Shown here: positions 1-7,638 of the stretch, piece by piece
Layout: each line of letters starts with the position of its first letter
Position numbering within the stretch: the stretch's first letter is position 1
From: an uncultured Gammaproteobacteria bacterium
GTDB taxonomy: Bacteria; Patescibacteriota; Patescibacteriia; Patescibacteriales; UBA12465
Direction of reading: 5' to 3'
Length of the DNA stretch: 59,609 nucleotides
Assembly (NCBI GenBank): GCA_964609365.1
Contig: CAZSRC010000001.1
Coordinates: 1-59,609 of the forward strand
Made by a program: the position numbers and the translations under genes
Notes under the pieces: generated by a model
What the model was told of the DNA's origin: nothing
Database searches by the model: none
What the model saw: the letters and a program-made list of their open reading frames with translations, nothing else

Positions 1-363
1 TATAATTGGTATGCAGTTAATCAAGTAGATCTTTGTCCAACAGGATGGCACGTACCATCTGATACTGAATTTACAACTTTAACAGATTATTTAGGAGGAG
101 AATCTGTTGCTGGAACTGCTTTAAAGACAGATTCTTGGGGTGGCAATAATAGTTCAAGTTTTACAGCCTTGCCAGCCGGTGGCCGTCTGCACGATGGTGA
201 TTTCGATAGTCTTAGTAGTTTCACTAGGTTCTGGTCTTCATCGGAGAGCGAAGTTCTTGATTTTTCTTGGCTCCGTTACTTGTCTTCAGGCAATTCCGGA
301 GTCTATCGTAGCGTTGACGGTCAGGCTTTTGGTTTTTCGGCTCGTTGCTTGAGAACTGAATAA
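1..363 (+). CDS. C-terminal fragment (5' end outside window) of a FISUMP/DUF1566-type C-type-lectin-fold surface protein
   Basis: Frame 1 is open from nt 1 to TAA 361-363. The translation YNWYAVNQVDLCPTGWHVPSDTEFTTLTDYLGG...FWSSSE...GFSARCLRTE carries the 'CP.GWH.PS..E...L', 'WSS' and terminal 'G.S.RCL' hallmarks of Fibrobacter-paralogous/DUF1566 domains. Confidence 0.6.
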   Translation, partial: YNWYAVNQVDLCPTGWHVPSDTEFTTLTDYLGGESVAGTALKTDSWGGNNSSSFTALPAGGRLHDGDFDSLSSFTRFWSSSESEVLDFSWLRYLSSGNSGVYRSVDGQAFGFSARCLRTE

Positions 364-405
364 ATAAGCAATCCTTGCTCAGTAAGTTAAAACACTTCTT
401 AAAAG

Positions 406-432
406 CAAACATTTGAACAATGTTTGTTTTTT
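406..432 (+). terminator. Rho-independent terminator after the lectin-fold gene
   Basis: 8-bp stem caaacatt/aatgtttg (406-413 / 419-426), 5-nt loop, followed by a T-run at 427-432. Confidence 0.6.
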
Positions 433-504
433 TAAATAGTTTATTTTTAAATATTTATAAAATTATTATAAAAGCTTTTTATGGGTGTATATTAGCGCTA
501 AGTA

Positions 505-533
505 TTGACATTTTTTTGTTTATATGATATAAT
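505..533 (+). promoter_or_regulatory. Consensus sigma70-type promoter (TTGACA-N17-TATAAT)
   Basis: TTGACA at 505-510, exact 17-nt spacer, TATAAT at 528-533. It lies 87 nt upstream of ATG 620. Confidence 0.6.
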
Positions 534-619
534 AATATATTACAATTTAAAATAATATAAATAAATATTTGAAAAATTTGTTTTTTTATCCAAAAAATCA
601 ATTTTTTAAAAAAAATAAT

Positions 620-1987
620 ATGAAAAAATTAATCTTATTTTTATTTTTAGTGGCTGCTGTTGTTGCATTTACTTCAATTCCAGCAAAAACAAAAGTAAAA
701 TCTTATTATTCGGGTGATGCTTTAAATTTTAATAATAAATTAATTGTTGCCTCAACTGATAGCGAGAGTCTAGAGTTGTTTAGTCTTGATGGGGAAAAAT
801 TAAATCTTAAATCTAAAATTAGACCTTTTGATCTTAGATTTAATAAGGATGATAGTTTTTATGGTGTAAAACTTAATATTGAAAATGGTCGTTTATACGC
901 TTATGCTATATCAGGATTTTCTATTTATAAATATGATTTTACTAACTTATCTGATCCAGTTTTAGTTAAGGAGTCTAAAAATACTTATTGGGAGTGGTAT
1001 AATAAAGTTGATAAATTTGGCGACAATATAGTAACTGTTAGTGCTAAAGGAGTTAAGGTTTATAATCAAGACCTAGAAATTATAGATAGTTATGAGCTAA
1101 ACAATGAGGTCCCTTATAACATATCTTCAGGTGGTAATAAAAATTTAATCTTTAGCTTGAATGGAGATAAAAATGAAATAAGTGTTTTTGATAGAAATCA
1201 AAGAAAAATTGTCTCCAATTTACAAATAAATTTTTACGGAGGTCAAAATAATAGAGCAATATATTATGATGCTTATGATGATAACGTCTATTTTTCTGAT
1301 GATCGTTCTGTAAAAAAAGTCGGATTAAATGGAGCTTTGAAGGGTTATTTTGAGCACTTAGGATATCCTGGATATGATGTCAGTTCCTCTAATAATGAAT
1401 TTTTATATTTTGCTAATGGATTAGGTGTTGTTAAGTTGAGAAAATCAGATATGTCCGTTGTTTCATCTCTTAGAACTGGTGGCGTAGTGCTTCCTGAAGG
1501 TTGGGCTATGGGCCTTAAGGCTGTGGCGATGCCAGGATCAGAAAGGGTTGTTGTTTTTAATAATTCTAGTATTTTGATCTTGAACTCTGATTTAAGAGTT
1601 TTAAGTCATTTTGCCGCTGGTCAAGATGATAAGGTTTATGCTAAAGAAAATTTATTCTTAAATTTAAGCTCCTCCTTTATTGATAGTGGAAGTGAATTTC
1701 AAGTTAGTGGAGGTGGTTTTTTACCAAAAGAAGACTTAGTTATAAAATTTTATAATCAAGAACACAAGATAAAAGCTGATAATGAAGGAAGGTTTACTAA
1801 AGTTTTGAACTCACCAGAATTATCAAATAGCAACTCTAGAAATAAAGTTTTTTCTCAAAGTCAAAATGAAAATGGTATGCAAATTCAAAACATATCAGAA
1901 AGAACTGATGTGAAAGTTAATGGAGAAAAATCAGGATTTACTTATAGCACCAGTTTAGAGATTAGGGATTTAGTAATAGTTAATTAA
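620..1987 (+). CDS. Secreted or membrane-anchored hypothetical protein, possible LVIVD-like beta-propeller repeats
   Basis: The track ORF 569-1987 starts at TTG. The first ATG (620) gives MKKLILFLFLVAAVVAFTS, a signal or anchor sequence. Segments such as LYAYAISGFSIYKYDFTNLSDPVLV and LYFANGLGVVKL weakly resemble LVIVD repeats. Confidence 0.55.
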   Translation: MKKLILFLFLVAAVVAFTSIPAKTKVKSYYSGDALNFNNKLIVASTDSESLELFSLDGEKLNLKSKIRPFDLRFNKDDSFYGVKLNIENGRLYAYAISGFSIYKYDFTNLSDPVLVKESKNTYWEWYNKVDKFGDNIVTVSAKGVKVYNQDLEIIDSYELNNEVPYNISSGGNKNLIFSLNGDKNEISVFDRNQRKIVSNLQINFYGGQNNRAIYYDAYDDNVYFSDDRSVKKVGLNGALKGYFEHLGYPGYDVSSSNNEFLYFANGLGVVKLRKSDMSVVSSLRTGGVVLPEGWAMGLKAVAMPGSERVVVFNNSSILILNSDLRVLSHFAAGQDDKVYAKENLFLNLSSSFIDSGSEFQVSGGGFLPKEDLVIKFYNQEHKIKADNEGRFTKVLNSPELSNSNSRNKVFSQSQNENGMQIQNISERTDVKVNGEKSGFTYSTSLEIRDLVIVN

Positions 1988-2066
1988 TAACTTTTAAATA
2001 GTTTTATTTCTCTGTCTATTATGTTATAATAATAGACAGAATAAATAAAATTAATTTTTAAAAATT

Positions 2067-2858
2067 ATGGACTTAGTTAATTTAATTAGACAAAAACGTC
2101 AAACTTTGATTTCTATTTTTTTGATATTTTTTGTTATTGGGTTGTTTGTTGTTTTAACACAAGATTTCAAGTATGGAAGTAAATCAAAGATATTAGTTAT
2201 TCAAGAGGGAGCTGGTAGGGTTGACCCCTTTGCTGTCTCTAGATCAGTAGAGTATTTATCTGGATTATTTACTAGAGTTATTCAATCTAATTCTTTTTTT
2301 GAGTCTGTAATGCAGTCTGATTTTAATATTAATAAAGATTATTTTGGTCAAAGTTCCATTAAGCAGATGAAGATCTGGAGAAAGACTGTTTCCGCTAAAA
2401 GCTCTGATGATTCTGGTATTATAAATATTAACGTGTATCATAAAGATAATTATCAGGCTACTCAAATAGCGCTTGCAGTAAATCATGTTTTGATTAATAA
2501 GCACCAATCTTTTCATGGACTAGGAAGCTCCGTAAAGATAAGTGTCATTGATCAGCCTTTAGCATCAACTTATCCCGTTAAACCAAATTTAATTTTTAGT
2601 TTATTGTTAATAATAGCCTTGAGTTTATTTTTTGGTTTAGTATATGCTTATCTTTTTCCAGAAAAAAAATATGATTTAAATTTTTTTTCTAATAATAAAA
2701 TAAAAAATAAAAAATCATCCATAAATCAAAATCGAGATATTAACAATAACCCAATTAATATAAATGTTAATAGGTCAGAACAATCCGTTAATCCAAGTAA
2801 GAAAAATAATTATGAAGAGATTAAAAATTCTGGAAATATTAACAATTTATTTGAGTAA
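2067..2858 (+). CDS. Wzz/GumC-like polysaccharide chain-length determinant family membrane protein
   Basis: Has an N-terminal TM (LISIFLIFFVIGLFVVL), a 'KILVIQE', 'SNSFFESV' and 'IININVYHKDNYQATQIALAV' core, and a C-terminal 'P.KPNLIFSLLLIIALSLFFGLVYAYLF' TM. This is the typical Wzz two-TM topology. An N-rich low-complexity tail follows. Confidence 0.5.
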   Translation: MDLVNLIRQKRQTLISIFLIFFVIGLFVVLTQDFKYGSKSKILVIQEGAGRVDPFAVSRSVEYLSGLFTRVIQSNSFFESVMQSDFNINKDYFGQSSIKQMKIWRKTVSAKSSDDSGIININVYHKDNYQATQIALAVNHVLINKHQSFHGLGSSVKISVIDQPLASTYPVKPNLIFSLLLIIALSLFFGLVYAYLFPEKKYDLNFFSNNKIKNKKSSINQNRDINNNPININVNRSEQSVNPSKKNNYEEIKNSGNINNLFE

Positions 2859-5076: not shown

Positions 5077-7638
5077 ATGAATAATGATATTAGTTCTCAA
5101 ATTGCTCTTGAGGGAGAGGTGCTTATTCAAAGTAATCTAAATTATTTATATTGGATTGCTTTTTTTGTTTTTGTTTTTTTACTTTTATATTTATTGAGAT
5201 ATTTTGTAAAATATTTTTCAGTTAGAAGTAAAGATAATTCTAATATTATTTTTTCAGTTCGCCTACCAAAGGAAAAACCAAAAGATCAGGACAGGGAATT
5301 GAGCATACAACAATTGAGAGAGGAGATAGCTAAAGGGGAGACTGTTTTTTCTAGTATTGGTGGTTTAAAAGCTGAAAGAGGTTTTGTGTCTTGGTTTTTT
5401 GGAAGAAAAGATAATTTTTCCTTTGAAATAGTATCAAATAAGGGAAAAATTTCTTTTTATGTAACTGCCCCTAAAAGTAAATCACTTTATTTAGAGCAGC
5501 AAATACACGCTCATTATCCAGAGGCTTCAATTGAGGCTGTTGAGGATTATAATGCTTTTAATTCCCAAGGATCAGTTTTAGCAGCTTATTTTAAAGCTAA
5601 GAGGAGTTTTGTGTTTCCTTTTCTTGATTATACCGACATGGAACATGATCCAATGAATTCATTAATAAATGTCATGTCCAAGTTAGAAAATAATGAAAGT
5701 ATTGCTATTCAATATGTTGTTAGAAGTGCAAAGAAAGATTGGCATGCAAAAATAAAAAGCTCTGTACAGAATGCTTATAAAAATAATGATGTTAGTCAAA
5801 TATTTAAAGCCAGTGGCTCAGCTTTTCATAATAGTATAAATTTTGTTATTTATGATGTTATTTTGGGAGCTTTAAATATTGGACAACCAGATAAAAAACC
5901 AGAAGATTCTGCAAACAAAAAAGAATTAACAGAAAAAGAAAGAGAGATGTTAAAAAAAATGGAGCAAAAAAATTCTAAATCAGGACTAGATGTAAATCTC
6001 AGAATTGTTGTTAGTGCTAATACTCAAGAAAAAACTAAACTTTATTTTGATAATATTAGTAGCGCTTTTAGCGAATATACTTATTATCAGTACGGTAATT
6101 CTTTTTATCAATATGATAATTCTATTTATTCTAAAATAAAAAGAAGTATTAACAAGCAATTAAAGCAAGAAAGACTAGTTAGTAGTTTTATATATAGACA
6201 GTTTATTGAATCACAAAGTTTTTTATTGAGCACACAAGAATTAGTTAGTATGTTTCATTTTCCACTACCTCATACTGAAACTCCAAATATTGATTGGCTC
6301 ACAGCAAAATCAGCTCCGGCTCCTAATAATATTCCCAAGGAGGGAGTTACATTGGGCTTTAATGTTTTTAGAGGACAGAAAACTGATGTTAAAATAAAAT
6401 CGATTGATCGCCGTCGCCATATGTATATTATTGGTAAATCTGGTACTGGTAAATCTGTTTTATTGAATAATTTAGCTATTCAAGATATTCAAAATGGTCA
6501 TGGAGTTTGTGTTATGGATCCAAACGGTGATTTAATTGAGGATATTTTAAATAGAGTTCCTCCAGAGAGAGCTGATGATGTAGTTGTTTTTTCTCCCGCA
6601 GATACCCAAAGGCCAATTGGTTTAAATCTATTAGAATATGATCCTCGTTATCCAGAGCAAAAAACTTTTGTTATTAATGAAATGATTGGAATCTTTGATA
6701 AATTATATGATCTAAAGGCAACTGGTGGACCTATGTTTGAGCAGTATATGAGAAATGCCTTATTACTTATCATGGATAGTCCAGAAACCGGTTCAACTTT
6801 AATGGAAATATCAAAAGTTTTAGCTGACGAAGATTTTAGAAGAATGAAAATAAAGCTTTGTAAAAATAAAACTGTAGTTGATTTTTGGCAAAAAGAAGCC
6901 GAAAAAGCTGGTGGAGAGGCTGCTCTAGCTAATATGGTCCCTTATATAACCTCTAAATTAACACCATTTGTCTCTAATGATATGATGATGCCTATCATTG
7001 GTCAGCAAAACAGTGCTTTTAATTTTAGAGATTTGATGGATAGTCAGAAAATATTAATGGTTGACCTTCCTAAGGGTTCCATTGGAGAGTCAAATGCCTA
7101 TTTATTAGGTATGATTATTGTTGGAAAAATATTAATGGCAGCATTATCTAGAACTGATATACCACAAGAACAAAGAAAGGATTTTTATTTATATATCGAT
7201 GAGTTTCAAAATTTTACTACTAATTCTATTTGCCAAATTTTATCTGAGGCTAGAAAATATGCTTTATGTTTGAATATTGCCCATCAATACATCGGTCAGC
7301 TTAGTAAAAATAATGATAATCAAATTAAGGATGCCGTTTTTGGTAACGTTGGAACTATGGTTAGTTTTAGAGTCGGGTCAGAAGATGCAGAATTTTTAGT
7401 TAAAGAGTATGGGCCAGTATTTAATCAATATGATTTAGTTAATGTTGGTAGAGGTGGCTTTGTTAAATTATTGGTTGATGGTCAGGCTGTTAGACCATTT
7501 TCTCTGCAAACTATTTGGCCTTTAATGGGTCAAAACAGGGAAGGCATGTCTAAGAATATCAGGGAATTAAGTCGTTATAAATATGGTCAAGATAGAGATA
7601 TTATTTTAAAAGAAATCTCACTAAGAAGTGATTTTTAA
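5077..7638 (+). CDS. Membrane-anchored VirD4/TraG/TraD-like (type IV coupling protein family) P-loop ATPase
   Basis: N-terminal TM (YLYWIAFFVFVFLLLYLL). Walker A is IIGKSGTGKSVLL and Walker B is FYLYIDEFQNF. 'ARKYALCLNIAHQYIGQL' resembles the TraG-D_C region. Confidence 0.7.
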   Translation: MNNDISSQIALEGEVLIQSNLNYLYWIAFFVFVFLLLYLLRYFVKYFSVRSKDNSNIIFSVRLPKEKPKDQDRELSIQQLREEIAKGETVFSSIGGLKAERGFVSWFFGRKDNFSFEIVSNKGKISFYVTAPKSKSLYLEQQIHAHYPEASIEAVEDYNAFNSQGSVLAAYFKAKRSFVFPFLDYTDMEHDPMNSLINVMSKLENNESIAIQYVVRSAKKDWHAKIKSSVQNAYKNNDVSQIFKASGSAFHNSINFVIYDVILGALNIGQPDKKPEDSANKKELTEKEREMLKKMEQKNSKSGLDVNLRIVVSANTQEKTKLYFDNISSAFSEYTYYQYGNSFYQYDNSIYSKIKRSINKQLKQERLVSSFIYRQFIESQSFLLSTQELVSMFHFPLPHTETPNIDWLTAKSAPAPNNIPKEGVTLGFNVFRGQKTDVKIKSIDRRRHMYIIGKSGTGKSVLLNNLAIQDIQNGHGVCVMDPNGDLIEDILNRVPPERADDVVVFSPADTQRPIGLNLLEYDPRYPEQKTFVINEMIGIFDKLYDLKATGGPMFEQYMRNALLLIMDSPETGSTLMEISKVLADEDFRRMKIKLCKNKTVVDFWQKEAEKAGGEAALANMVPYITSKLTPFVSNDMMMPIIGQQNSAFNFRDLMDSQKILMVDLPKGSIGESNAYLLGMIIVGKILMAALSRTDIPQEQRKDFYLYIDEFQNFTTNSICQILSEARKYALCLNIAHQYIGQLSKNNDNQIKDAVFGNVGTMVSFRVGSEDAEFLVKEYGPVFNQYDLVNVGRGGFVKLLVDGQAVRPFSLQTIWPLMGQNREGMSKNIRELSRYKYGQDRDIILKEISLRSDF

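Follow-up and report, generated by a model that had tools for sequence, protein, structure and literature searches.

The gene cut by the left edge of the window ends in a segment that is poor in adenine and rich in codons of the form NNY, which raises the question of whether this segment is the target of a DGR and, if so, where the retroelement acting on it would lie. The window is the whole stretch of DNA analysed, 59,609 nt long. The initial annotation had read the segment as a candidate DGR variable region with its retroelement off-window, and this reading is strengthened by a match to the template repeat (TR) of a sister cassette, L030, by variability among sister variable regions and by a family control. 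Nt 173–353 very probably constitute the variable region (VR) of a surface-type FISUMP (CLec2-class) target gene. We lean, with less confidence, towards a VR that is currently serviced by a DGR; a cognate TR and reverse transcriptase (RT) would then exist in the window's genome, and diversification of the window VR would be ongoing.

The features on which the argument rests are:

1–363, forward strand: 3′ part of the FISUMP target gene, encoding the C-terminal 120 aa; the 5′ part lies beyond the left window edge
173–353, forward strand: probable VR, aligning end to end with the L030 TR (about L030 nt 1630–1807)
331–353, forward strand: conserved 3′ block GGTTTTTCGGCTCGTTGCTTGAG, 23 nt, common to all sister VRs and the L030 TR
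354–383, forward strand: VR-specific 3′ flank AACTGAATAAATAAGCAATCCTTGCTCAGT, stop codon included, defined by sister-locus alignments
367–379, forward strand: stem-loop AGCAA-TCC-TTGCT of 5 bp in the centroid structure, 4 nt after the stop
405–433, forward strand: AT-rich hairpin with a 9-bp stem (405–413/419–427, one G·T) followed by a T-run; its fold z-score is only −1.7

The proposed mechanism is that of a DGR acting from elsewhere in the same Falkowbacteria-like CPR genome, which would transcribe an Asn-codon-rich TR of about 181 nt. The RT, helped by bAvd, would copy the TR transcript and misincorporate opposite template adenines. The cDNA would then replace the VR, guided by the 331–353 block together with the VR-specific flank and small hairpin (354–379). 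The outcome would be randomised codons (NNY from AAY) at about 17–20 ligand-contact positions on an invariant scaffold.

Target gene and genomic setting

In frame 1 of the forward strand, no stop interrupts the reading between the left edge and the TAA at 361–363. Its product matches the Pfam profile PF09603 (Fib_succ_major) at 77 bits (cutoff 33.9, E 2.9e-21, profile positions 54–187 of 187) and the NCBIfam profile TIGR02145 at 65.9 bits (cutoff 41.65, E 7e-18); Lcl_C/DUF1566 is also matched, weakly. With PF09603 and TIGR02145 both above their cutoffs, the original assignment to the extreme C-terminus of a FISUMP/DUF1566-type protein holds, and the 120 residues make up the C-terminal two-thirds of the Fib_succ_major/FISUMP domain. 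The nearest relative is a 534-aa protein with 58% identity, encoded at L010 and, as the same gene, at L027 on a 26.9-kb contig. A collection of 5.8 billion proteins holds no near-identical allele of the window protein, the best match being 55% identical. Because relatives reach 534 aa and the FISUMP domain spans about 175–200 aa, some 0.2–1.3 kb of the gene would be missing to the left of the window.

For the putative C-type-lectin fold, an AlphaFold model of the homologue P0002 (55% identical) has a pLDDT of 94.9. When this model was compared with the PDB by Foldseek, the top ranks were mostly C-type-lectin-like domains at non-significant scores (E at least 0.19, TM 0.26–0.33); a sequence search of the PDB gave no match.

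The window is a piece of a cellular genome with 28% GC, and L1, L11, NusG, BacA and a TrwB-like ATPase are encoded nearby. For the 455-aa protein encoded next to the FISUMP gene, the best relatives that carry a name belong to Candidatus Falkowbacteria and to the Patescibacteria group. It is a secreted protein (620–1987) that matches no Pfam family and has at least 250 homologues in Falkowbacteria and other Patescibacteria, and a perfect extended sigma-70 promoter (TTGACA, a 17-nt spacer with TG, TATAAT) stands upstream of its gene at 505–533. Further along, 5077–7638 encodes an 853-aa TrwB/TraG-like coupling-protein ATPase whose orthologues carry DUF8128 and TrwB_AAD_bind; its chromosomal synteny with bacA is kept across Falkowbacteria relatives, and no mobile element is obvious there.

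The FISUMP gene itself is not a fixed part of this neighbourhood. The closest relatives of the 455-aa gene (76%, 68% and 65% identity) have glycosyltransferase or GHL15 genes upstream instead, and such genes occupy the FISUMP position in the syntenic loci L002, L007 and L036; the window FISUMP gene is therefore accessory.

For extension of the contig, an exact 41-mer of nt 16–56 was sought in collections of genome, metagenome and viral contigs, none of which contains it. The sole record of any window protein is a 2.1-kb Logan contig (L001, SRR8925755), which equals window 339–2433 at 100% identity and thus breaks at nt 338/339, inside the VR. Such a break fits population heterogeneity, as weak evidence, because the other end of the contig also breaks, at a SNP. 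The same sample holds the relative L005, whose 455-aa orthologue is 76% identical at the protein level, so that two related Falkowbacteria-like populations co-occur in it.

Adenine depletion and codon usage

The counts that first drew attention to the segment were reproduced. Nt 181–360 contain 29 A in 180 nt (16.1%) and 44 NNY codons out of 60, and nt 1–180 contain 53 A (29.4%); the quoted level of about 35% A in other coding DNA agrees with 34.9% in the neighbouring gene and 36.1% in the whole window. T stands at 36.7% and GC at 47% in nt 181–360. Codons ending in C or T number 33/60 in the first half of the ORF and make up 52% window-wide. Across the window, 180-nt stretches hold a mean of 65 A (sd 11.5), and the lowest of all 59,609 nt, both strands considered, falls here, with a minimum of 25 A at nt 166.

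Synonymous codons were resampled in 5000 simulations that followed the codon usage of the window itself (17,613 codons). For nt 181–360, 44.4±3.2 A are expected and 29 are observed, a count reached in 0/5000 simulations, and the low A content is therefore not a product of amino-acid make-up. Third-position A is observed 6 times against 18.3 expected (10% in the VR segment vs 37% in local usage), and third-position C 14 times against 6.2. Individual codons show the same departure: Arg is encoded by CGT four times in nt 181–360, a codon with 5% usage in the window's genes, and Leu TTA, with 55% usage, is absent. Nt 1–180 of the same ORF fit expectation (53 A observed, 48.1 expected). With the codon anomaly confined to the 3′ half and T unchanged, the ORF contains a sharp, adenine-specific compositional break.

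Family composition does not account for this break. The initial annotation had named equally low A content in orthologues among the findings that would make it ordinary; the last 180 nt of six FISUMP homologues from other genomes (L011–L015, L020) instead contain 25–33% A, and depletion is accordingly not a family trait, these homologues being non-diversified. Among the homologues from species-representative genomes, only three relatives share the depletion, L010, L016 and L018 (13–18% A). All three lie on AT-rich contigs (about 30% GC), and the gene content of two is clearly that of a CPR-like genome.

Comparison with the template of a sister cassette

When the window is aligned at the DNA level with L010 and L021, the two loci nearest to it, blocks of perfect identity alternate with codons that differ at 2–3 positions, and an invariant 3′ block runs past the stop codon. 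Per-codon-position differences between the window and L010 are [19,14,15] in the VR and [10,10,17] upstream, which is only mildly informative as a DGR test.

A metagenome collection was scanned with the conserved 3′ block pattern GGTTNTTCGGNTCGTTGCTTGAG, and 10 loci with 11 copies were recovered. The approximately 170 nt upstream of the block contain 13–21% A in 9/10 loci, on contigs of 31–38% A. One locus, L030, carries two copies 790 nt apart and is a complete DGR cassette of FISUMP target (417–1025), bAvd, TR and RT. Its first copy, with 16% A upstream, ends the FISUMP ORF. The second has 34% A upstream (the TR) and is directly followed by a 402-aa RVT_1 protein with NLTSQ...YVDD. Between the two copies lies bAvd, matching PF22296, and NF033474 (DivGenRetAVD) below its cutoff. 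The neighbours of the cassette are ftsA, ftsZ, hrcA, grpE and dnaK.

The L030 TR comes from another organism, and as the best available template it differs from the window at 13% of non-A positions. Even against this heterologous template, the differences concentrate where adenine-directed mutagenesis would put them. Within nt 173–353, 54 positions face an adenine of the TR (174, 181, 182, 187, 188, 191, 193, 194, 200 and so on up to 335); mutated ones start at 181/182 and end at 335. Mismatches affect 34/54 of these adenines and 16/124 of the remaining TR bases (hypergeometric p 3.6e-11). Sorted by the base in the TR, 63% of A, 18% of C, 14% of G and 8% of T are mismatched. In the reverse direction, only 5/25 window adenines are mismatched to the TR, which is the one-way asymmetry expected of A-to-N mutagenesis. 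For comparison, the L030 VR differs from its own TR at 29/54 adenines and at 6 non-A positions. The adenine-directed reading of the segment is thus supported, and so is its prediction of an AAY-rich template: the L030 TR encodes an Asn-rich peptide, with AAY at 17/58 codons, and the window has GGC, CTG, GAT, GAT, AGT, TTC and so on at these sites.

The non-A mismatches between window and L030 TR cluster in the 5′ third of the VR. When the sister TRs L032 and L034 are added, 8 unexplained positions remain inside the VR, 4 of which have A in the window and G in the TRs. Since many non-A mismatches vanish in this way, the cognate TR would be a diverged sibling of these templates. Because all available TRs belong to other organisms, we infer the window's own template rather than see it. 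Other candidates were set aside. L032, L033 and L034, reached through RT homologues, come from unrelated samples and were rejected as the source of the cognate TR; as templates, their TRs fit more poorly than that of L030 (34 and 23 non-A mismatches), and the TR of L035 goes with another family of VRs.

Variability among sister variable regions

Among 10 non-redundant sister VRs, column entropy is concentrated at the same sites, at 1.28 bits in TR-A columns vs 0.25 elsewhere (p 4e-20). Invariant columns number 84/124 at non-A positions and 5/54 at A positions. The framework residues that the initial annotation had described as kept (WSS, GFS.RCL) are encoded by codons among the 84/124 invariant non-A columns.

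Two pairs of sister loci show live activity. L026 and L028 have nearly identical flanks and differ at 19 VR positions, 16 of them in TR-A columns. Between L022 and L023, with 99.5% identity across 2 kb, there is an AA/TT difference at a TR AAC codon. These differences indicate that the sister family is being diversified in nature.

Some sister loci have architectures of their own. In L022, L023, L026 and L028 (e.g. L022 332–640), the ORF passes the VR block as GAGAAGTGTTTCTCCC... into a second FISUMP-like segment. A cluster of 7 mismatches between L022 and L023 lies at L022 527–545 and may mark a second VR in a tandem-domain target. In L031 (Ga0116152_10178922, reverse-complement 992–1114), the order is VR, bAvd and a conserved TR 5′ flank, and the expected TR site holds A-depleted, VR-like sequence up to the contig end; this could be a chimeric assembly, or a TR that itself received mutagenised cDNA.

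Location of the retroelement

The 59.6-kb window contains no repeat of the VR region by blastn or by a scan tolerating any mismatch at adenines. It likewise contains no RT, with no YxDD motif in any frame and no tblastn match to the L030 RT, and no Avd by tblastn. The earlier statement that TR, Avd and RT are missing from the window is in this way confirmed. Downstream of the VR come a probable terminator, then a perfect promoter and genes of unrelated kinds, which excludes the canonical target-Avd-TR-RT order in the window. The cognate TR and RT would accordingly lie off-window, either beyond the left edge or remote, in trans.

Sister loci are found in both arrangements. bAvd adjoins the VR in L030, L031, L021 and L035, and an RT is present in the cassettes L030, L032 and L035. 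Other sister VRs, which offer precedents for a cassette elsewhere in the genome, have no RT or Avd nearby, as in L027 (12 kb of downstream sequence) and L025 (6 kb). Among GTDB relatives, 11 loci were recovered; all belong to other species, and no RT or TR is present in them. A longer view is given by a relative's contig of 901,513 nt, Ga0645779_00060, which carries L035 and L036. It has a full cassette at 166–179 kb, with a DGR target that joins a type-IV-pilin-like N_methyl N-terminus to a FISUMP-like domain. In the region syntenic to the window, another N_methyl (pilin-like) + FISUMP gene lies between the TrwB-like gene and bacA. The contig also has a second RVT_1 ORF, about 10 kb upstream of the 455-aa orthologue and immediately upstream of rplJ.

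Avd adjacency is not required for non-adjacent DGR targets. One tentative arrangement, to which we give somewhat less than an even chance, is that the VR is such a target, served in trans by a single remote TR/RT cassette that acts on several FISUMP adhesin or pilin-like genes, the targets being mobile accessory modules. Each dispersed target would be recognised through the 23-nt block, the VR-specific flank and the mini-hairpin, and target genes would hop between chromosomal sites, here to the position that relatives fill with glycosyltransferase or GHL15 genes. If true, CPR bacteria would join the lineages in which a DGR acts on multiple, remote targets. Non-adjacent DGR targets are documented (PMC5758913), and the Treponema denticola DGR (TvpA) offers a precedent in which one TR/RT serves VRs far from the cassette (PMC5758913), although it belongs to another lineage and another CLec class, and the remoteness of the window's cassette is itself putative. 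Wu et al. (2018, PMC5758913) found one target to be the usual number for CPR DGRs; a trans arrangement in the window would be atypical.

A different account of the missing cassette is that the VR is a relic or orphan, shaped by past DGR diversification or acquired by transfer or recombination from a DGR-bearing CPR relative, and now frozen with neither cognate TR nor RT. A 59.6-kb window free of any cassette, an accessory FISUMP gene replaced by glycosyltransferase or GHL15 in L002, L007 and L036, and several sister VRs likewise lacking an adjacent cassette all agree with it, but the 3′ elements (23-nt block, VR-specific flank, small hairpin) are all intact, and the codon anomaly (47% GC in a 28% GC genome) has not decayed toward local usage. 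The break of the SRR8925755 Logan contig inside the VR adds weak evidence on the same side. Taken together, we consider a frozen VR unlikely.

An origin without any retroelement, through ordinary FISUMP composition or recent transfer of a GC-richer segment, could draw on the elevated GC already present in nt 1–180 of the ORF (39% vs 28% in the genome) and on the Gly/Ser/Trp/Arg richness of FISUMP domains, but it is highly improbable and effectively refuted by resampling (44 A expected from the amino acids, 29 observed), by T, whose undepleted level speaks against a GC shift, by the homologue control (25–33% A in the segment of six ordinary homologues) and by mismatches to a real TR that are adenine-specific and directional.

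Relation to known systems

CPR DGRs with targets of the Fib_succ_major class are already described, and knowledge of the DGR mechanism is unchanged by the window VR; with a known target class and a lineage rich in DGRs, it is another case of a known system. CPR DGRs are reportedly the subject of Paul et al. 2017. The variation that DGRs create in surface lectins is considered central to the attachment of ultra-small episymbiotic CPR bacteria to changing hosts. The C-termini of DUF1566/DUF823/Fib_succ_major proteins form a well-established class of DGR targets (CLec2, category d) that makes up 14% of curated DGRs (PMC5758913), and Fib_succ_major DGR targets have been found in human microbiomes (PMC4159848). 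DGRs are significantly over-represented in CPR genomes (Roux et al. 2021, PMC8144416).

The window VR resembles the CPR chromosomal DGRs (DGR clade 2, PMC8144416) in its Falkowbacteria-like host and in its place at the target's extreme C-terminus. The sister loci L030 and L035 also conform, being compact target-bAvd-TR-RT cassettes among housekeeping genes; the window VR, by contrast, is solitary, and Avd, TR and RT are all missing downstream of it.

Compared with category d/CLec2 targets such as LdtA of Legionella pneumophila (PMC5758913), the VR overlaps a C-terminal Fib_succ_major/DUF1566-like domain and the scaffold motifs WSS... and GFSxRC are kept, a likeness that concerns the C-terminal domain, the protein's N-terminus (lipoprotein signal included) being cut off. 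The window's relatives are surface proteins, with a signal/TM N-terminus in L010 and pilin-like N_methyl in L035 and L036.

The RT-anchored pipeline of Roux et al. could not detect remote targets (PMC8144416), and orphan targets like the window VR are missed by standard pipelines of this type. The present case indicates that base composition can by itself reveal a DGR target whose retroelement is off the contig. The analysis also provides a family-level template showing a conserved candidate IMH/IMH* distinction, 54 positions of predicted read-level variation, and several sister loci, some of them in pairs whose differences testify to live diversification.

3′ elements of the variable region

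The VR ends 8 nt before the stop codon, and its last 23 nt are the conserved block. By its sequence, this 331–353 block is an IMH-like core at the end of the TR/VR homology and a candidate for a role in homing; it is diverged in the TRs of L032 and L034. The sequence beyond the block separates the two kinds of repeat. VRs whose ORF ends there continue with AACTGAATAA (small variants), and all three TRs with CCCTGATTAT. At greater length, the sister VRs with an ORF ending at the block read AACTGAATAAATAAG(T/C)AATCCTT..., again with small variants. The 354–383 flank is kept wherever the sister ORF ends at this point, namely in L024, L025, L027/L010, L029, the L030 VR and L021. The contrast between VR flank and TR flank is a candidate IMH versus IMH* discriminator.

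The stem-loop at 367–379 recurs in the sisters L024 and L025 as AGTAA-TCC-TTACT, with one pair changed on both sides. It may serve as a target-site (target-recognition) hairpin and is a better candidate for this function than the hairpin at 405–433. The initial annotation had pointed to a hairpin downstream of the ORF; the structure exists, with a 9-bp stem at 405–413/419–427, but its value as a DGR element falls away, as it is most simply a terminator. The 405–433 hairpin is thus better taken as the target gene's probable intrinsic terminator than as a DGR-specific element; a consensus terminator scan missed it because it has fewer than 3 G-C pairs.

In the Bordetella phage BPP-1 DGR (Mtd), the difference between IMH and IMH* reportedly gives directionality, and a hairpin is said to lie downstream of the VR. 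The window family is alike in that a conserved 3′ element ends the TR/VR homology, after which VR and TR diverge into AACTGAATAA and CCCTGATTAT, and in the short stem-loop that follows the window VR. It is unlike BPP-1 in that the element is AT-richer, the hairpin is only 5 bp and the homing function is putative.

A further likeness concerns the 405–433 hairpin region. Window 398–440 resembles L030 1810–1850, where a hairpin overlaps the RT start codon (MFVF...). The window hairpin (405–427) with its MFVF small ORF was considered as the counterpart of the L030 post-TR hairpin and RT start, and was rejected because the alignment does not exceed shuffles; the likeness of the two hairpins may be due to chance or to a generic terminator. 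L010 has a similar GAACAT...ATGTTC hairpin.
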